A stretch of 64,000 nucleotides of DNA, from positions 100,316,001 to 100,380,000 of the forward strand of contig JANJGN010000021.1 in NCBI GenBank assembly GCA_026770705.1, written 5' to 3'. Every line of letters starts with the position of its first letter. The stretch's first letter is position 1. The notes below the pieces were generated by a model, which ran no database searches, was not told the DNA's origin, and saw nothing but the letters and a program-made list of their open reading frames with translations. A program made the translations under genes and the position numbers. Origin of the DNA: Isurus oxyrinchus (Eukaryota). Of the stretch, positions 1,658-22,693 are shown one piece after another.

Positions 1658-2008
1658 CGGTTACTGTTGGAAATATCACGGTAATCCAGAGACCGCAATC
1701 CCTCACCAAAGCCATGGGACAAACGGCGGACCTCGGCTGTACATATAAGGGTCCCGCTAGAGTCGGTGGCTACAAGTGGCACAGAGGCACCAAGCAGGGG
1801 AATGAAGTTTCCAACAGTACAGCGGAGTTCAAAGGTAGGGTGTTCGGGACAACTAAAGAGGATTTCAGTGAGAGGAGAAACGCGTCCATTCGAATAATCG
1901 ATCTGCAACCGGAGGACACCGGGTTCTATTTTTGCAAAGTGGAAATGATGGGAATCGGTGTAGCATATGGAGCCGGGACCACAGTGACCGTGATGCGTGG
2001 CAACGATG
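1658..2008 (+). CDS. NCR3: NKp30-like receptor gene A, VJ-type Ig domain exon
   Basis: tctgcag|...GATG|gtaagt, phase 1/1. VTVGNITVIQRPQSLTKAMGQTADLGCTYKGPARVGGYKWHRGTKQGNEVSNSTAEFKGRV...DTGFYFCKVEMMGIGVAYGAGTTVTV: V-set Cys/Trp/DxGxYxC plus J-like YGAGT. EVxNxTxEFxGR and CxVExxGxGV resemble human NKp30 as recalled. The leader exon was not found in the window. Confidence 0.85.
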
Positions 2009-2099
2009 GTAAGTTCGAGATGGTGGAGTTATTCTTACGAATCATGGGAGATCTTTCCAGTGACAAGCATTGTCCGTATAGGTAAATTATCCATTTGAT

Positions 2100-2365
2100 C
2101 ACATGGAAGTCCCAATCTGCGCCCTCCACCAGTTTGGAGAACACTACCAACTGCAAGTACCCCTCCAATTCACACGCCATCCTGACTTTGAACTATATCC
2201 CTTCATAGCCCCTGGGTCAAAATCCTATAACAACCGCCTAACAGCTCTTGTGCTGCGCATACGACAGATAGACGGCAGCGGTTCAAGAAAGCAGCCACCT
2301 TCACTACCTTCATAATGAGGCATATTGGGCTGGGCGATGAATGCTAGCCTTGTCAGTGGCGACTA
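2100..2365 (+). mobile_element. 3' fragment of a CR1/L2-group LINE (family with GGGCAATAAATGCTGGCC-type tail)
   Basis: Degenerate match to the copies at 48700-49030 and 17590-17995. Confidence 0.7.
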
Positions 2366-3135
2366 TTTTTAAAGGCAGATGTTACATATAATGTTGGTGA
2401 TGCGTCAGTCAAGTAATCAGCACAGTTATTGTGTGTAAGAGAGTGACTGGAGCCCCATCACCAAACCAGTATTGGGGACATGATATTTCAGCATGCCAGT
2501 ATTAAGGTACCCGATTAGAATCAGCCAGTTAACACATTCGTGATCAATTAGACCTCAGTGTCATCGGGTAAATGGAGATAGCGACAGCTGCAGCTCCGCA
2601 CGTGAGTATGAGCTAATGCATTACTCTCCAACAAAATGATTCGTCCCCGGAAGATACACATTAAATTGACCAGTTTAGGCAAGTCAAATATCAATACTTT
2701 ATTTCAGTCGTAAACGTCCCATAAATACGAGGTAAGGTTTTTTCCTTCGTGTGTTTGCGCTGGCGGATCTCCAGGGTGTACTGAATTATGGCGTGGAAGG
2801 GTGGCACCCCTTAACGGAACCCACCGATCCCCAGCCCCAAGCCCCCCTCCCCCTCTTCCCCAAACCGCCATCACAATGAAAGGGGAATTGGCACCAATGG
2901 TGCTCAGCGCCCTAGCTTTAAATTTCCTTAAACTTGAAGAATGGAAATCTCTCCAGCCGGCCGCCGGCGCCATTTTGCGTTGCCATGGGTGACTGAGTTT
3001 GAGAAACGCCAGTGATACATGTCAGTGAAGAGCCGCACGTCCCAGAGCATAGGAACCCGCGCTCCACAGACACACACACACACACACACACACTCGCTCT
3101 GCCCTTGACCGTTCTACCCGCGCATTTTCACACAG

Positions 3136-3264
3136 ATTCTGCAGGCAGCGGCGAAGGTGAGGCCAAGCTGGAGATCCCATCATCTGTCTTTGCAGTGGCC
3201 GCAGTGGTACCTCTCCTGATCATCGTTATAGTCATAACCGCTGTGAGGCGGCGCCGAAAAGCAG
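3136..3264 (+). CDS. NCR3: NKp30-like gene A, stalk plus uncharged transmembrane exon
   Basis: cacag|AT...GCAG|gtaaag, 129 nt, phase 1/1; DSAGSGEGEAKLEIPSSVFAVAAVVPLLIIVIVITAVRRRRKA. Confidence 0.85.
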
Positions 3265-3570
3265 GTAAAGCGGCCTCTTTGTGCATTTCCCTGCGAATGG
3301 CACATTCTTTGCTCGTTGTAAGGCGAGTGACGGGGCGGGAAAGCCGGCTGACAGGTCGGGTTCAATCCCACCTCCCCGGTTGATTGTAATTGAGGATGGG
3401 GCTGGGCAGAGCGCGGTATCAGTATTGCAGCCCACGTCCTCAGCTTCTCGACCCCACTGGGCCAGGATTAAGTTAAAAACTCCACTCGTGATCGATTATA
3501 GCTTTAAGAAGAAATTGGGAAATGAATCCAGCTCTTTAATATTTCTGTTGTCACCTTCCTTTCCTCACAG

Positions 3571-3592
3571 CCGCTCCTGAGCAGCCCACAAG
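3571..3592 (+). CDS. NCR3: NKp30-like gene A, 22-nt cytoplasmic micro-exon
   Basis: Pyrimidine tract ttcctttcctcacag|...AG|gtaact; AAPEQPT; phase 1/2. Confidence 0.75.
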
Positions 3593-3699
3593 GTAACTGT
3601 TCACACAGAACTACTTATTTTATGTCAACGAGGCCATTTTTTGGGTCCTTAGTGGTTTCTTGAATGTCTAAATTTCCCTGATGTCTCTTTTTGCTTCAG

Positions 3700-3734
3700 G
3701 TCAGGTCCACTCTACGCAGAGGTCCAAAATGCAG
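3700..3734 (+). CDS. NCR3: NKp30-like gene A, 35-nt cytoplasmic exon with YAEV
   Basis: ttttgcttcag|G...GCAG|gtgggt; RSGPLYAEVQNA; phase 2/1. Confidence 0.75.
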
Positions 3735-4668
3735 GTGGGTAACAGAAAGAAATGCACATAAGCCGCCACTGTTAATACACCTCAAACACTGGTGCCTTCT
3801 AATTGATAGCCTGGCTAAGTTTATTATTCATCCGTTATAATCTGGCACCCCACCAGTAACTAGAGCATGAAGACGTAAGATCAATTGGAAAAGGCCAGGA
3901 GGGAGATGTGGCGTTTTTTATTTTAAACTTGACAAGACCTGTAACGTGTTGCAAGCAGATTTAGTAGCAACTTTCCAAAGGAAGTTGGAAATGTACTTAA
4001 AAACCAGACAACATGCAGGTTACGTGGAAAGAACAGGTAAATGGGGCTAATTGGGCAGGGCTTTCAGAGACCCAGAACGGGCAGGTTGGACCGAATGGTC
4101 TCCTTCTGCCCTAAAGGATTTCATGCTTCAATAACGCGTCTTTTCTGAATTAGCCATTGAGCACCTCTTGGTCACGAAGACAAGTTGTAGTGCTAAAGTT
4201 TATGGCTAATCAAATACATTTATAAGATTTTTAAAAACTAATTTCTAATGAGAATTGCTGGAGGATATTGTAATGTGCATTTCGATGTTGAGATCGATAT
4301 TAGCCTAGCCGTCTGTCTATTCTGGTACGGGTGCTTGGCGCGCTCATATCACACTGCTTTGTCTGCTAGTTTAAAGCCAGCAGTTAAAATGTGGGCATTT
4401 ACATATGAGCTCTATATTGTATAAGGAAATATGGCGTAGTATTATATTATGTTGTAAAGTATTATGTTTTGCCTCATATTTATTGTATCGTTGCATTGCC
4501 GATTACGGTATGGCCTGTCATATCTATTGTTGCATTGTGTTCTACCTAATTTCAATCATGTTATGTTGCATGCTATAATATTATGCAACAGTGTATTAAG
4601 TTGCATTTTATTCACATATTCTCTATCCAAATAAAGTGTTTACTCCTGTTTACCCTTATATTTTATAG

Positions 4669-4709
4669 AGACCAATTGTTTTAGCTCTGAGAGCAAAAGA
4701 CCAAATCGG
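4669..4709 (+). CDS. NCR3: NKp30-like gene A, 41-nt cytoplasmic exon
   Basis: ttttatag|AG...CGG|gtaagt; ETNCFSSESKRPNR; phase 1/0 bridges the flanking exons in frame. Confidence 0.7.
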
Positions 4710-5359
4710 GTAAGTAGAGCAACTTATATTATTGCTAAACCTTGTGACCCGGTGTTTATTTTTCCAGTTAATTTTTCATGCAGAATTGTACTCTTCATAT
4801 TGGCTGTGCAAATCTAAAAACAAAAGAAACGAGGTTTGAGGGCTTGGACTATCCTCTCTGTGAATGCGAGTTAGAGTCTCAGCTTGTCACGCAGGCGTGA
4901 AACTTGATTGCGTCTCGCCCCAAAGTCAAGTTTAACGCACAGTGGCGGCAGGTTGATAAACAACAGCAACTAAGATATCGGAATTCAAGAGAGAGCCATC
5001 CGGGGGAATGTGTTACACGGAATGTTAGGGTTTTTGAACACTTAAATAAATAAGCAGAACACAACATAGACCTCAAAATTCTCAGCATTATACATTGCTG
5101 TGGCCAGACCAGACAAGGGCGGCAGTCATGTTTGACCAGGGATGGTGATGGTGCCTGGGAGATTAGCTGTAAGGTTTGATTCTGTGAGGAAGACTGTGTC
5201 AGGCCGTTGCTTGACTATCCTGTGAGACAGCTCTCCCAATGTTGGCACTAACCCCCAAATGTTAGTAAGGAGGGCTTGGCATGGCCGACAGTGCCGAGGG
5301 CGTTACAGGGTGGTCCCTCCGGTTTCATCCTTTTTTGTAACTTTATAGCTGTTTGATAC

Positions 5360-5568
5360 AACTGGGTGGCTTGCCAGGCAATTTCAGAGGGGATTAGTGA
5401 ACCAGATGGGTTTTTGTTTGGCAACAATTTCTTGGTCATCATCAGACTTTCTTATTGAATTCAATTTTCACGGTCTGCCGTGGTGGGATTCGAACCCAGC
5501 TCCCCAAAGAATAACCCCTGGGTCGGTGGATTGCTGGTCCAGTGTCAACACCACTATGCCACAGCAAT
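5360..5568 (-). mobile_element. tRNA-derived SINE, 5' part
   Basis: Reverse strand has GTGGCATAGTGG (A-box) and GGGTTCGAATCCC (B-box); same family as 9560-9905 and 47345-47745. Confidence 0.7.
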
Positions 5569-5759
5569 GTAGTGATTGGAGATAATATGAAAGAACGAAA
5601 ATATGGAAATTTGGTGTCAATGCAGGAAATACTGGATATACATATCAGGTCAGTCAGTGCCTGAAAAGGTAGACGCAGAATGACTGGTGAGATGCTCCCT
5701 TTCAACGGAGTGTTCTCCTGAATTCATTCCCAGGTGCTGATCTGAATAAGATTCTGAGA

Positions 5760-6080
5760 GAGGTTATAAAGATAGATGTTGAGTCTGGGCAGCCTAGAAA
5801 TTGGGGTCAAAATCTCCGAATAAGGAATAGCACTGAGACGAGGAAAGATTTCTCTGCGAGGATTGAGAATCATTGGACATCTCTAGCCCCGAATGTTCAG
5901 TCGTTGAGTATGTTGAAGATTGAGATGGAGAGATTATTCGGCTCTCGAGGCATCAAGGGACATGGGGACTGGGCGGGAAAGTGGAGATGACGCTGAGGAT
6001 AAGCTATGATCTCATTAAATAGCAAGGCAGGGGCGAAGGACCATATCCCCTTCTCCTCCTCCTGGATCTAATGTCCTGAC
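5760..6080 (+). mobile_element. Degenerate CR1 3' fragment in the last intron of gene A
   Basis: Similar to the CR1 3' ends at 15604-16040 and 30810-31530. Confidence 0.6.
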
Positions 6081-6472
6081 ACTGGGCCCACTGCTCGGGC
6101 GGATTCGCAAGTGTGGAGTGTGAAGTGTTTTCTAATATATGCATTTTAACATTGTACTTATAATTATTTGTTCTTTACGCCGACTAATTCCCATTCGTGC
6201 TATACGTTTTATTTAATGATAGAATCGTTGGTGCGCTGGAACATATTCAAAATAGCAGCAATATCGAGGGCAGTGTGGTCTATCCTATTTCACTGTACAA
6301 GGTTTGATAGGGAGACTTTTATGTTGTTTATTACGAATATTGAAGGTTTGAGATATGTTTTGTCGAAACTACACAAAACGCTTTAAGCTATGTTTTAGCC
6401 ACTGCACCGCCTCTGATGCCCAATTCGATTTACAATATTTCATTCAATACTCAAACACTTTAATCTCAATAG

Positions 6473-6580
6473 AGAGGGGGCGGAGATGAGATGCAATACG
6501 CCCAGCTGAATCTACAGGAGAGCCAACAAACAGAGCGCCCAGTAAATCAATTTGGGGTAGTGTACTCAACGGTCAAGTAA
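6473..6580 (+). CDS. NCR3: NKp30-like gene A, terminal exon with two ITIM-type motifs
   Basis: ctcaatag|AGA..., phase 0; RGGGDEMQYAQLNLQESQQTERPVNQFGVVYSTVK, stop at 6578-6580. Confidence 0.8.
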   Translation, partial: RGGGDEMQYAQLNLQESQQTERPVNQFGVVYSTVK

Positions 6581-6894
6581 GCAGAGCGGTTACCATTCAT
6601 CCCGAGGAGGGGTCGCCACCGGCTGACGAGGGGCATCATTTCTGCAGCGTTGGCCCGTAATTTCGTCCGGAAAGTCCGGAGTCCCTGGAGTTCCGGCAGA
6701 TCTTCAATGGCGGGTGGAGTGATCGGGAAAACCCTCCATGGAAGTTCCAGAGATATTTCTGGCCGTCCACATCACTGAGTGAGATTGGTCCCACGAGTGT
6801 TTTAACATGAGGCTCTGTGCTATTAGATGTGAATATTTGCCACGCTTGTGTGAAATGTATTTGCCTCCTATCTTAGGCAGTGTTACCCCGTTTA

Positions 6895-6900
6895 AATAAA
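6895..6900 (+). terminator. Candidate polyadenylation signal of gene A
   Basis: AATAAA about 315 nt after the stop codon. Confidence 0.4.
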
Positions 6901-8979
6901 CAGGTGATCATGGATCTTTGAAATATGGTGTCAACATTTTGAACGTTCACTGCCCAAATCAACCTAGTTTCATCGTTTAACTCCGTAAGCGTTCTCATCA
7001 TTCTAAACTGCATAGACATTTTCGCAATAGCAGTTCTCCCCAGTCGACCCATCCGGTTGAGCAGTTAATTTGTCGTTTTACTTTTTCTTTTAAGAGAAGT
7101 AAAATATATGTTCTAAGTTAAGTTTGATAAACGAGTAACTTCTGCTAGGAGTGTCTCCCTATTCCTGTGGTAACGTCGGCGAAACGCAGAAGAGCTTTGT
7201 TATTGCTAAAGCGGAGTTGCATTGAACTTGGATCGAAGTCACGACAGGAGGGTCGGGAGAACTAGCTTCCTAAGGAATGATACCTGCCGCGTGTGTAAAA
7301 CCGATTGATTGCTCTGCAGGGCGTCTCAAAACTCTTCATGCCCAAACACTTCGCCGCAGATAAAGTTAGGTGCTTGTCTCCAACCCCCAAGTGTTCTGCC
7401 TGAAGGGAAGTTCCAACGCTCCAACAGAATTCGCCGCAATTTCCTCGCACTGGCCTTAATGAAAATTAAATCCGCCGCTCAATATTGGTTGCGGTCTGAA
7501 AATCTCAGCTAACTCTTCCTTTGCCCTCCTCCCTGATGTAACGCCCATGCTGTAAACGCCAAGATCTACCCAGTAGTCAGTGTTGCTTTACAGGAACAGG
7601 CAACAAGAAATGTGCCTCAAACGTGGCTTCTGAAACGACAGATTAGATAAGTGAGTAGGCCGTCATTTTTGTAGGGACGGGTGGATTCTTGAGAACGTAA
7701 CTGCTCTCATTCCGTTGTGCTGTTTGCAGCCACCTCAAATGGACCCACGGCGTTTCAGCCGAGAGCCACTGCTCCCATCAGTATTGTGCTCCTTCAGGAT
7801 TGAGCGGTCAGATTAATTTATGTTCCAACTTCCAATCTCAAGAGTGAGGTTTGATCCACAAACCTGTACCTCCCGCGACCCTCACAACTGGTAGAAAAAG
7901 GTGACTTTCATCTCTGACTGAGTTGAGCCATGGGCAAGGAAATGGAAGAAAATTTCAACTTTCTATCTTAATGTAAGCACCTCTCTTGGCGCCTGTCACT
8001 GAAGAGCCCTGTATGACGCCTGGCATAAACTGAGTTGCACCTCCATTATTCTGTTTGTTCGTCCTATTGAGCGATATAGATATAGCCTAATGTGCCAGTG
8101 GTTATCTGAATGTATCAATAACGTGATATAACAGTTAACTTTATCTGCAAATATGTGTATAGATGTAGGTGCACATCACCAATCAGAAGCAAATACATTG
8201 GTATATTGCAGTCCCATCGGTCTGGAAATTGGGATTAGCGCTAGACGTCTGTATTTATAATCGCGTTGCATTAGTCTGCCCACCAATGTCATCCAACATG
8301 CTAACTTCCTCGCAGGGGTGGACTGCCGAGCGCCCGCCCACCCGCAATCCTTAACTAATGAATTTGCAACATTTGAAACATGCCCTTCCTCGAGACTCGA
8401 GTCCTTTGCTGGGTACCACTCCATTTCTGTCACATTCTGTGGAACTCCATGCAAACCTCCAATCAGAGTTTCACTTCCCTCCGCTCTCTCTGGCCCTCCC
8501 TGCCATCTTCCACTTCTCCTGTTGAGCTTTGAGCCTGTCCTTCGGTCTCCTTCACCCACCCTCTTTCAACAGCAGGCCACACCATTCTTAACTCAATAGT
8601 TAAATACTCGTTTAGTTGAGCTATATCTACGAAATGAAGGTGGAACAGAAAGCTGAAAAGCAGAGGGAATTCGACGGGGAAAAATCCCTCCCCCCCCGCC
8701 CCCTCCAGATGAGACTATACAAACCCAAAGGCTGAATAAAGAAAGCGCTGGGAAAAGAAAAAAATAAACGAAAAGTTGATTGAGTTAAATAGATTGGGTT
8801 GAGACGGTGGTGACAACAAGCTTGATGGTTTCATTTGTACAATATCAATATAAGATAACAGGAAACATTTCCCATTCTCCATTATAAGCCCCAAAACATA
8901 TAGTTGTGTGGAGAAGTATTGGAGAATTCATCATTAGCTTAATTAATAGCCTTTGACTGCTGTTAAATGTACAATGTGG

Positions 8980-12526: not shown

Positions 12527-12676
12527 AAGTTTATTGGAACAATGATCACAGTTACAGTAGTAAAACGTACTAGTTTCACAGATTTAGTGAGGAGAAACAG
12601 TTCCCCACAGGCAGCATCCATCGGTTACTGTGCAGCTCACAAGGGTCACTATGCCGAAAAGATAGAGGCTGGAGCG

Positions 12677-15603
12677 TCATCAATGTGGCTGGACGATCCA
12701 ACAGGGCCAACAGCAGATAAGGTGCAGCATACTTACACCTGGTCGCAGCTAGATGGTTCCATCCGTTCCGGGATAGACTTCCTGTTTGTGTCCCGGGCGT
12801 TCGCAGTCAGTACAACCTACGTACAACCTGTTTTTCTCTGACCACTGCCTCCTACTGGCCAACTGTCACTTACAGGAAGAGCAGAGGGTTGATAGAGGGA
12901 CATGGAAGCTGAACATGCAACTGCTTACCCTAGAAAACATTGAGGAGCTCAAGGGAGATTACAAAGGTTAGAGAACAGTGAAACCCCTCTTTGAGTCCCT
13001 GGCACACTGGTGGGAAGTGATCAAGGAGAAAATCAATAAGTTTTTCATCCTCAAAGGTGTCCAGAAAGCTGGAAAGGAACAGAGGGAAATGTCCTGACTC
13101 CAGAAAAACATGCAGAACCAGCTCCAGCTACAGTCAATGGGGGCCAACATCAAGGAGGAACTCCAAGAGGTGAAGAGCCAGCAAGCCTCACTCTTCACTT
13201 TGGAGGCCTCCAAGTTGATCTTCCAGTCCAGAGTCCGCTCCGTGGAGCAGGATGAGATGTGCTCACGTTTCTTCTTCCAAAAGGTATACAGAGAGAGCTC
13301 TGTGATCAGCAGTCTAAAGGAAGAAGATGGCTCAGTAAAGTCACTGCAGCCTGACATTCTGAGAATCAGCAAATCCTTTTATGCCGTATTGTATGATGTG
13401 AAGCTCACAGACAGTGCGGCCTCCCTGTCTTCCCTGTCCTCTATCACGGAGGTCTTAGTTGACAGCACACGGGAGAGTCTGGACAAACTGCTAACTCCTG
13501 ATGAACTGACTAAGGCCCTTGAGTGCTTCAAGAAGAGTAAAACTCCCAGAAGCGACGGCTTATTGATGGAGTTGTATTTGGCTCCGTGGGGCTGGATTGG
13601 CCCAGACCTGTTAGAAGTGTATGAGAGTATGCTTCTGGCCGGAAGCATATCAGAATTCATGTGGAAAGGCATCATCACCCTCATCTATAAGCAGAAGGAG
13701 GAAAAGGGGGAAATTAGAAACTGGCGACCCATCTCAATGTTGGATGTGGACTATAAGATTCTGCCCAAGGTCATCACCAATTGGGTCAGGCCTGCTCTGG
13801 AGTTGGTGATCCATCCTGACCAGACCTGCAATGTGCCCAGCAGGAAGATCTCTGACAGTCTTGCACTCTCAGGGATACAATTGCCTATGTGCAGTACGGG
13901 TGTGGACACCTGGCTCATCAGCCTAGACCAGGAGAAGGCCTGTAACAGAATATCGCACACCTACATGGTGGATATGCTGTCCAAAATGGGGTTTGGGGAC
14001 GGAAGGAATCTGCAACTGGATCCAATTGCTCTACACTAACATCAGTAGCACAGTCTCAATCAATGGGTAGGAATTGGAAAGCTTTCCAATTAAATCTGGA
14101 GTCAGGCAGGGCTGCCCTCTCTCCCCTGTCCTGCTTGTTTGCTGCATAGAACCCTTTTCTGAGTCCATCAGGAAGGATCTGGGCATAAGAGGAGTGATGA
14201 TCCCAGGCAGTGGAGGCATTCAGGACAAAACCTCCCTGTACATGGATGATGTTGCCATCTTCTGCTTGGATCTGCTGTCGGTGCGCAGACTGATCCACAT
14301 CGATGACCAGTTTGAACTGGCCTCGGGAGCCAAAGTAAATTGTGGGAAGAGTGAGGCCATGTTCTTTGGAACTGGGCTGACCAATCCTTTGTCCCCTTCA
14401 GGGCTGAAGGCCTGAAGGTGCTGGGGATATGGTTCAGAGGGATCAGAGCATGCATTAGAATCAGGAAGGAGCAAGTGGCTATATATGAAAAGGAAAACTG
14501 GGCATGTGGCAGTGATGCTCCCTCTCCATTGTAGGTAAGAACCTGGTCATCAGGCATGAGGCACTCTTGCTGTTGCTGTAAGTGGTGCAGGTCTGGCCCA
14601 TTCCACACTCCTGCATGATGACGATCACCCGAGCCTTCTTTCACTTTATCTGGGGGTCGAAAATGGATTGTGTCTGCAGGGACGCAATGTAAAAGCCTCT
14701 AGGTACGTGGGGAAAAAACATACCCAACATCGCCCTCATACTGATGGCCACATTTGTGTGTGCGTGCATCAAGCTGTGCATAGACCTTCAGTATGCAACA
14801 CAAAGTGCCATTACATGCTGAGGTTCTACCTGTCCCTGTTGTTGCGAAGGATGGGTCTGGCCACACTGCCGTGGAACACTCCAAGTAGTTGGACCATGCC
14901 GTACCACCTGTCCCTCGTGGAAACATTTTTGCAGAGAAACACTTTTGACCAAGTCCATCAGGCAGTGGTCTGCATGAAACATCTTAGTGGCGCTGCAGGA
15001 AAAGGAGATGGTGGATCCTGTCAGATGGTTCCCCGAGCAGACTGTCTAAGTTATTTGGCAGAATATCTCGTCGTCAGAACCTTCCAACAAGCACCAAGAT
15101 GTAGCTTGGCTGGTGGTGAGAAAGGCCCTCCCCGTCAGATCCTTCCAACACGCCAGGAGTCTCACCCCCTCTACATGTTGCCCTCGAGGTGGCTGTGGTG
15201 GGGACGAGACCATTGTTCACCTCCTTGTGGAATCTGTCTTTGCAAAGAAGGCCAGAGAGAGATGCAATGGTTTTTGTCGAGGTTCATCTCGAGCAGTTCT
15301 GTGACACAGGACTCTGTGCTCTACGGGCTGTTCCCAGGGACACACACCGAGACAAACATCAACTGCAGCTGGAGGATCATCAGCTCGGTGAAAGACGCTT
15401 TTTGGTCTGCCTGAAACTTGTTGGTTTTCCAGCGCAAAGAGTTGTCCCCAACCAAGTGTTGCAGACTGGCACATTCCAAGGTCCAGGACTACGTGCTGAG
15501 GGACACACTAAAGCTTGGGGCAGCCGCCACAAAGGCGCAATGGGGAAAAGTCGCTGTCTAAGACCTTCCTAAGACAGTGCACCGAGGGGCTGGGAACTGT
15601 AAG
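12677..15603 (+). mobile_element. Tx1-clade non-LTR retrotransposon ORF2, frameshifted and 5'-truncated
   Basis: APE end (YTW...IDFLFVS...FSDHC), RT motifs (NWRPISMLDVDYKI, LDQEKA, SGVRQGCPLSP, YMDD), C-terminal CPRGGCGGDETIVHLL zinc knuckle. Confidence 0.9.
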
Positions 15604-17422: not shown

Positions 17423-17465
17423 ATGGATTCCAGACGCATACTGTGGGCGCTGGCCCTGTTCTCTG
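17423..17465 (+). CDS. NCR3: NKp30-like receptor gene B, leader exon
   Basis: MDSRRILWALALFS then G|gtaagt; signal peptide, phase 1. Confidence 0.85.
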
Positions 17466-18998: not shown

Positions 18999-19337
18999 GA
19001 ATTGCTGCAGAAAACATCAGAGTTACCCAGACCCCGCTCTTCATTAATGCCACCGAGGGGCAGTCGGTGCTGCTGAACTGCACGTACGAAGGGCCCTCGG
19101 GAGTCGGTTTCTTCAAGTGGCACAAAAATACCAAAAACGGGCTTGAAGTCACCGAGCAAGCTGCGGAATTCAGAGGGCGAGTGTCTCGGGCAAGCGCTGA
19201 GGATTTTAAAGAAAAGAGGGACGCCTCCATTAATATAACAAACTTGAGGCATTACGATTCAGGGACATATTACTGCGAAGTGGAACTTATGAGATTTAAC
19301 ATAACATATGGAGCAGGAACAACACTTAACGTAGCGC
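18999..19337 (+). CDS. NCR3: NKp30-like gene B, VJ-type Ig domain exon
   Basis: attgacag|GA...GCGC|gtgagt, phase 1/1; IAAENIRVTQTPLFINATEGQSVLLNCTYEGPSGVGFFKWHKNTKNGLEVTEQAAEFRGRV...DSGTYYCEVELMRFNITYGAGTTLNV; gapless with gene A, 54/113 identities by hand count. Confidence 0.85.
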
Positions 19338-20567: not shown

Positions 20568-20696
20568 GCAAGCTCCTGGTAGAACAGACTGCAGAAAAAC
20601 CCAATGAGTCAACGACATGTGATGCAATCACGAACACCAGTGCCAGAGCATTGGGCGCTTTCATTCTGTTTTTCACTTGTTACCACCTGATGAAAG
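20568..20696 (+). CDS. NCR3: NKp30-like gene B, stalk plus Arg-containing transmembrane exon
   Basis: tcttcttctgtctag|GC...AAAG|gtaact, 129 nt (same length as gene A), phase 1/1; RKLLVEQTAEKPNESTTCDAITNTSARALGAFILFFTCYHLMK. Confidence 0.75.
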
Positions 20697-21567: not shown

Positions 21568-21589
21568 TTCGTGGCCTCCAATGTTCAAG
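21568..21589 (+). CDS. NCR3: NKp30-like gene B, 22-nt cytoplasmic micro-exon 1
   Basis: ttttttatag|TT...AG|gttggt; VRGLQCS; phase 1/2, same size and phase as gene A 3571-3592. Confidence 0.65.
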
Positions 21590-21674
21590 GTTGGTAAATC
21601 TAAGAAAAAACTTTTTATTTTCAATATTATTTTTTATACTGTTCTGTAAAGTACATTTTCTGGTTGTGTTTCAG

Positions 21675-21712
21675 AAGAAACGACTGGATTTCCGACGATA
21701 CCTCTTTAGCAC
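21675..21712 (+). CDS. NCR3: NKp30-like gene B, 38-nt cytoplasmic exon
   Basis: gtttcag|A...C|gtaagc; RRNDWISDDTSLA; phase 2/1. Confidence 0.65.
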
Positions 21713-22527
21713 GTAAGCTCAAACTGAATTGTTTTAATACGATGAACACGTTTGTGTGATGTGTTGTGAAGTCATCCAGGTGACATGAGTGAATTAATGT
21801 TTTCAAGGGTGAGTGCACTATTGACCTTCCTGCATAATTAATGGAGGAACAAACTTGCTTTGAACCCAGGCAATTCCATAACCAATAATGCGATGTGACA
21901 CTTAAATATAATTAGCAGAAATGTAAGGCTATTGTTGTTTACATTAGTAGCCTGAAATAAGCCGGTTAACATTAAACATTTATTTATTTAATACCAGACA
22001 TTTGCAGATGAGGTTGAGTTGGTTGGTTATATAAACAGAACTGGTAACTTTCGGTTAACACTGTTGGATTGCTGTAAAATCCAACCAAGAAAAGATTATA
22101 ATGTGTATAGCAAAATTGTAAGCCCTTCTCCAACACCTTCATTTCAACAGCACTCCAGCCTGTAGACTCAGTCAATATCGAAGTGCAGGTTATATTTTTT
22201 AATTTAATTGGTGTGTATTTAGTTCTTCAATTCCGTGATATTGTTTTCCCTTTCACTTTTGATTCCAAATCAATATTGCACCTTACAATATCTTGCATTT
22301 TAGTAGCGAATATTAGTGATATTTATCTAAATCGTTGACTGCGAAGATAATCATTTAGACATTATTTTAAAATAGCACACTTTAATAGGAAAGTACATAA
22401 ATATTCTTGTTGATTATCACTGTTGAAAGGACATAAGAGGCGCATTTAATGTTAATCTCATCTCATGGTATCAAATGTATTAGCTTTGTTTGAATCAAAG
22501 GATTATTTTCGATTTTTATATTCGCAG

Positions 22528-22549
22528 AGCCAGACCCACAAGTACAAAG
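22528..22549 (+). CDS. NCR3: NKp30-like gene B, 22-nt cytoplasmic micro-exon 2
   Basis: ttcgcag|AG...AG|gttagt; QPDPQVQ; phase 1/2. Confidence 0.65.
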
Positions 22550-22644
22550 GTTAGTTTGTGGCTAGGGCACTAACAAGTCCTATTTTTAAATTTTAAATTA
22601 TGGTTTAATTTTAATTCATAGCGATGTGGTTTGTTTTTTTCCAG

Positions 22645-22693
22645 AAGTTTAGTGGGTAACAATTTTTCTGCCTCTGATGAAATTAATCCACTG
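22645..22693 (+). CDS. NCR3: NKp30-like gene B, 49-nt cytoplasmic exon
   Basis: ttttttccag|A...CTG|gtgagt; RSLVGNNFSASDEINPL; phase 2/0. Confidence 0.65.

Follow-up and report, generated by a model that had tools for sequence, protein, structure and literature searches.

Gene A and its spliced transcript

The DNA analysed here, called the window below, is a stretch of 64,000 nucleotides from Isurus oxyrinchus (GenBank assembly GCA_026770705.1, contig JANJGN010000021.1, positions 100,316,001 to 100,380,000 of the forward strand); coordinates are those of the window unless prefixed C21, which denotes the contig. Near its start lies gene A, a seven-exon gene for a type I membrane protein of the NCR3/NKp30 family. 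Six of the exons and five junctions are found in RNA, and the leader exon is assigned by homology. The exon lengths add up to a protein of 242 residues, and the parts of the gene are as follows.

C21:100315537-100315579, leader exon, 463 bases upstream of the window; by homology, outside the RNA coverage
1658-2008, plus strand, V exon; unsplit VJ-type V-set domain with a V-set Pfam match and a PDB match; RNA contig over 1764-2008
3136-3264, plus strand, stalk and transmembrane (TM) exon; uncharged hydrophobic segment, then a basic stop-transfer run; both junctions in the RNA contig
3571-3592, plus strand, micro-exon 1 of the tail, 22 nt; junctions in the RNA contig
3700-3734, plus strand, micro-exon 2, 35 nt; first tail tyrosine, PLYAEV (3707-3724), variably conserved
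4669-4709, plus strand, micro-exon 3, 41 nt; junctions in the RNA contig
6473-6580, plus strand, last coding exon, 108 nt; MQYAQL (6491-6508), VVYSTV (6557-6574) and the stop
6581-6901, plus strand, 3' UTR; AATAAA at 6895-6900; contigs of runs X1 (to 6779) and X5 (6636-6901)

From the TM exon onward the exon phases are 1/1, 1/2, 2/1, 1/0 and 0, with AG/GT ends throughout. By a simple home-made splice score applied to the 319 AG sites of 2009-6700, the acceptors of the micro-exons occupy ranks 1, 2 and 3, and that of the last exon is weak (rank 45). A single contig of run X1 (same species; 779 nt, depth 4.4) spans 1764-6779 and skips five introns, the junctions being 2008/3136, 3264/3571, 3592/3700, 3734/4669 and 4709/6473, each GT..AG. 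Because it lacks five introns the contig must come from spliced RNA, the run's RNA label being a guess; its V-exon letters show no differences from gene A and five from the paralogue A' described below. The earlier note on this DNA had joined micro-exons of 22, 35 and 41 nt to the 108-nt exon in frame, and its predicted peptide was reproduced exactly, with all five junctions present in the RNA contig. The junctions were seen in one of four runs (X1, X2, X4 and X5), that is, in one low-depth contig from one sample. Coverage of gene A in run X5, from a different study, was restricted to 3' UTR positions 6636-6901, ending at the AATAAA, and runs X2 and X4 had no piece over the coding exons among those listed.

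Might this chain of exons have arisen by chance or belong to a minor form, with the true transcript ending earlier? The weak last acceptor would fit this, as would the GenBank record for nurse shark NCR3, which stops before the last exon. The five junctions within one contig largely refute an early end, however, and the last exon is common to four other sharks, so that we give this alternative hardly any weight. As the earlier note had supposed, the transcript passes 6473 in the frame of the tail, the X1 contig joining 4709 to 6473 and continuing to 6779.

A candidate leader at 1351-1432 was rejected, since orthologues indicate an exon upstream of the window. The first intron contains a 38-bp minisatellite (18.4 copies, 365-1065). 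At 217-211 on the minus strand, beside a purine repeat, a 7-nt stretch has acceptor-like and donor-like flanks, probably by chance.

Neighbouring genes and linkage to the MHC

Downstream of gene A the window holds three further features.

12600-15560, decayed non-LTR retroelement between genes A and B; RVT_1 match in 13098-14036
17423-17465, 18999-19337, 20568-20696 and 21568-22693, gene B; NCR3-like, with an arginine in the TM exon
36997-58142, complement C4-like gene about 30 kb downstream of gene A; MG1 and MG4 exons

When exons of the C4-like gene were compared with PDB entries, C4 was the best match for two of the three tested and C3, weakly, for the third. In elasmobranchs the c4 genes lie within the MHC, according to an excerpt of PMC10751288, and the C4-like gene, as one marker, thus argues for MHC linkage of gene A.

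V exons related to that of gene A number 21 on the same contig, with one weak match elsewhere in the genome, and for some of the paralogues there are near-identical proteins in great white and basking shark. Gene A belongs to an expanded family in which inhibitory-type and activating-type members occur together. Two more clusters of NCR3-like V exons lie at C21:100842001-100982000 and 104920001-105290000. They include candidate ITIM exons (100918647/100919318, 100875665, 104971577 and 105112256), genes with basic TM residues (100897144 and 105241781) and a V exon with two stops (100857248). The paralogue scan was a crude one that missed the last exon of gene A and the TM exon of gene B, and many of its ITIM assignments look like chance matches.

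The ectodomain

The V exon carries both cysteines and a G-x-G-T J motif in one unsplit exon and matches the Pfam V-set with an E value of 6.5e-15. In a PDB search, the top four of 793 matches were human NKp30 (E 1.8e-13 and about 2e-13; the next match, 2.5e-10). Gene A is 66% identical to nurse shark NCR3. A protein search with the V exon gave no candidate at near length. The description of the ectodomain as NKp30-like therefore stands, with NKp30 as the top solved match of a single unsplit VJ-type V-set domain.

Excerpts of PMC7409301 and PMC6514059 place NKp30 in the CD28 family and give B7-H6 as a ligand. Arg47, Val53, Gly51 and Glu111 are named as B7-H6 contacts in the former. Two of these four, Gly51 and Glu111, are identical in gene A, and in the alignment Val53 is replaced by Tyr and Arg47 by Pro; the numbering was anchored on the full-length numbering, which agrees with other residues named in the same excerpt. 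The FG (CDR3) loop of the V exon has no proline, so that the CD28/CTLA-4 motif is absent. By analogy with NKp30, a B7-H6-like molecule is possibly the ligand of gene A, and we treat it as a lead only.

The transmembrane segment and the tail

The hydrophobic TM segment of gene A has no charged residue and so lacks the arginine of mammalian-type activating NKp30. We defined the ITIM as (S/I/V/L)xYxx(I/V/L) and the ITSM as TxYxxV/I, following an excerpt of PMC12151841. VVYSTV fits the ITIM consensus and MQYAQL deviates at -2, where it has Met; their tyrosines, the last two of the tail, are 22 residues apart, and a third tyrosine, that of PLYAEV, lies 29 residues ahead of MQYAQL. The reading of VVYSTV as an exact ITIM and of MQYAQL as ITIM-like, with the tyrosines 22 apart, was thus recovered in full from the spliced translation. 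The six frames of the window contain 174 exact ITIM matches, and about 0.1 are expected per tail of this length. An exact ITIM by itself is weak evidence, since about one tail in ten would have one by chance, and it is conservation that lifts the motif above chance. In a genome search with the last exon of gene A only that exon itself was matched, and no close copy was found among the scored candidates of A' and the other paralogues.

Gene A has orthologues in five sharks (catshark, horn shark, two bamboo sharks and nurse shark), whose records share with it the leader, the V domain (65-76% identity) and the neutral TM segment. The two-tyrosine last exon is present in horn shark XP_067865393/395, catshark XP_038671257 and bamboo sharks GCC38504 and XP_043533718, records named SIRP-alpha-like, uncharacterized or similar; nurse shark QTT61898.1, unlike gene A, ends ahead of that exon. 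In all four of the five records that reach the last exon the tyrosines are 22 apart, and each has at least one motif that matches the ITIM definition. At -2 of the proximal motif there is Met in gene A and catshark and Val or Leu in horn shark, the bamboo sharks and lungfish; at -2 of the distal motif both bamboo sharks have Met. The upstream tyrosine is kept in two of the four records that cover it and lost in catshark and horn shark. Thr is absent from -2 of both motifs in gene A and the four shark orthologues, so that there is no ITSM. RefSeq isoform X3 of horn shark has another tail from which both motifs are absent, and ITIM-less splice forms may therefore exist. The catshark record is a 469-residue RefSeq model in which the orthologues of gene A and gene B are joined into one protein, probably through annotation read-through; the order, A then B, is that of the window.

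The likeness extends to a lungfish protein annotated as NCR3-like (XP_043938374), in which three tail tyrosines are spaced 29 and 22 apart, as in gene A. Its last segment is identical to the last exon of gene A at 13 of 30 positions, a score reached by one of 2000 motif-preserving shuffles. Gecko and newt relatives have tandem motifs 21-24 apart. In the same test 699 of 2000 shuffles scored as high for gecko, 105 for a second lungfish protein and 14 for newt. The similarity of the gecko and second lungfish tails to that of gene A is not significant, and from these results the likeness of all three may be convergent.

The neutral TM segment and the conserved tyrosines spaced 22 apart make an inhibitory receptor likely, and an NKp30-like ectodomain on a conserved ITIM-type tail is best read in this way. 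Following ITIM receptors in general, gene A would bind its ligand, possibly a B7-H6-like molecule; Src-family kinases would then phosphorylate the last two tyrosines, and a tandem-SH2 phosphatase (SHP-1 or SHP-2) would dock on them and damp NK or T cell activation. SHP-1/SHP-2 binding sites are reported in the excerpt of PMC12151841 to be conserved across jawed vertebrates. The fixed spacing of 22 also bears on a different reading of the tail, as an adaptor or trafficking module that serves YxxL/V endocytosis or a positive SHP-2 signal rather than inhibition. Yxx-hydrophobic motifs also bind AP-2, SHP-2 can act positively, and some species depart from the consensus at -2. Against such a module stands the pair of motifs, hydrophobic at -2, whose spacing is fixed in four sharks and a lungfish; this fits tandem-SH2 docking better than it does a sorting signal, for which no fixed spacing is needed. 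We consider a purely trafficking or adaptor role improbable, and inhibition remains our reading of the tail.

Paralogue A' and the paired-receptor reading

The V exon of gene A has a close counterpart in the paralogue A', 635 kb away.

C21:100952815-100952471, minus strand, V exon of A'

The two V exons are 95.8% identical over 361 bases, and the genes have nothing else in common: in windows of 50, 45-50 positions agree inside the V exon and 8-24 outside it. Of the codon changes in the V exon, 11 are non-synonymous and 2 synonymous. The leader of A' is intact and its V exon open, and the hydrophobic segment of its TM exon opens with an arginine. The leader differs from that of gene A and resembles that of bamboo shark GCC38509, the one non-self A' sequence, matched by this short leader alone. 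The V-exon donor of A' is a weak GT or GC, and its last exon is not fixed, ten candidate acceptors each adding at most 17 residues of predicted tail. Behind the TM exon of A' no ITIM exon was found. At the A' locus, runs X1, X2, X3 and X5 (two samples) gave the gene A contig and repeats only, with no A' contig, which does not amount to evidence of silence.

In the V-domain tree gene A groups with A' (support 96/89 with 49 rows and 81/89 with 14 rows), and the sequences from bamboo and nurse sharks fall together, so that the grouping is by lineage, not by gene; the labels of the mammalian NCR3 rows and of some amphibian rows were guessed from sequence. Had A and A' been old and separate lineages, their V domains would be expected to group by gene. 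AU tests, with groups fixed ahead of tree building, rejected that grouping (p 0.0012 and 0.0005). It is likely gene conversion, or else transfer of the exon, that has preserved the likeness of the two V exons.

A and A' thus show the pattern of paired receptors: a near-identical, lineage-homogenised ectodomain with opposite types of TM segment and tail, the tail of A' being predicted only. The expanded family of mixed types, together with a V exon shared with a paralogue that has an arginine in its TM exon, is more in keeping with a paired-receptor system than with a lone checkpoint gene, and gene A probably forms the inhibitory side of a pair whose predicted activating side is A'. In human NKp30, by the excerpt of PMC6514059, the TM arginine couples to CD3zeta/FcRgamma. 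With an arginine-bearing TM exon and no ITIM exon found, A' would signal through CD3zeta/FcRgamma in the same manner.

Genes B and B' resemble A and A' in reverse. The paralogue B' (C21 minus strand, 100970582) lacks the TM arginine and keeps several YDE/YDD-type motifs, and the micro-exons of gene B appear to have lost their tyrosines. The V regions of B and B' are 95% identical over 1269 bases and the downstream parts 66-71%, and as judged from candidate exons the TM arginine is in B only and the tail tyrosines in B' only. B and B' are possibly a second pair.

The main competitor of the paired reading is that gene A is a stand-alone PD-1-like checkpoint for a B7-family self ligand, with A' dead or an irrelevant by-product of turnover. 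The CD28-family class of NKp30 and its binding of B7-H6 speak for it, as do the retained Gly51 and Glu111, the four runs without RNA support for A' and the doubtful A' donor. Against it, gene A lacks an ITSM and a PPP loop, and Arg47 and Val53 align to Pro and Tyr. A', moreover, has its leader intact, its V exon open, a TM exon in place and a counterpart in bamboo shark, and homogenisation of V exons recurs in the neighbouring B/B'. We regard a stand-alone checkpoint as unlikely. In sum, we think it quite probable that gene A is a spliced receptor of the NCR3/NKp30 family, likely inhibitory through SHP-1/SHP-2 and probably one half of a pair with A'.

What is added and what it suggests

RefSeq and GenBank models already contain the gene A type of tail under other names. 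Our literature search found no description of an ITIM-bearing shark NCR3; Kinlein et al. 2021, reportedly the main paper on shark NCR3 genes, was outside its scope, and a prior description is possible. MHC-linked XMIV genes of Xenopus have reportedly been described with ITIM or charged-TM forms, and a literature search for that name found nothing. Added here are the RNA proof of all junctions from the V exon on, the match in spacing between sharks and lungfish, and the tree test of V-exon homogenisation.

The known role of NKp30 is that of an activating NK receptor. A spliced form of inhibitory type, conserved across shark orders and with a matching tail in a lungfish, suggests that off switches were at one time built into the family and that its activating and inhibitory partners are held in step with each other. 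More broadly, and with rather less than even confidence, we propose that early jawed vertebrates had in the NKp30 family an MHC-linked system of activating and inhibitory pairs, that the inhibitory tail of gene A, whose three-tyrosine spacing recurs in a lungfish, is ancestral, that sharks keep the ligand-binding exons of opposite partners alike by repeated conversion (A/A', B/B'), and that mammals retained the activating form only. A/A' would offer a concrete pair in which to look for common ligands, self or microbial, in the most ancient vertebrates to have adaptive immunity. The design as such, an ITIM receptor or paired receptors with converted exons, is familiar, and with the tail already in database models the surprise to specialists should be moderate.

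Comparison with known receptors

PD-1 and CTLA-4 resemble gene A in having a single IgV domain and a tyrosine-bearing tail. In the excerpt of PMC12151841 the tandem motifs of PD-1 (Y223 and Y248) are 25 residues apart, against 22 in gene A; sharks have their own PD-1, and in fish, too, some PD-1 lack the ITSM Thr. Sharks also have their own CD28/CTLA4-related genes (PMC11599192). The earlier note's proposal of a checkpoint-like inhibitory receptor for a B7 ligand therefore survives in part: the conserved tail and neutral TM segment uphold the inhibitory reading, and the missing ITSM and PPP loop do not favour the analogy to PD-1 or CTLA-4.

Human NKp30 shares with gene A the single unsplit VJ-type V domain, the MHC linkage and the equivalents of Gly51 and Glu111. 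It is the best solved match, and we make no claim of one-to-one orthology. The difference lies in signalling parts: human NKp30 has a TM arginine and uses CD3zeta/FcRgamma, whereas gene A has a neutral TM segment and tyrosine motifs of its own.

The closest parallels to A/A' are known paired receptors, which belong to families different from that of gene A; the pairing of A with A' is a prediction from sequence. In Siglec-11/16, as an excerpt of PMC5701461 describes them, the ligand-binding exon is converted, the other parts have diverged and the trees group by lineage, as in A/A'. CD300A/C and the CEACAMs of Xenopus are likewise paired receptors kept alike by gene conversion, as proposed for A/A'. 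PD-1 and CTLA-4 are thus loose analogues of gene A, and a paired receptor is the better model.
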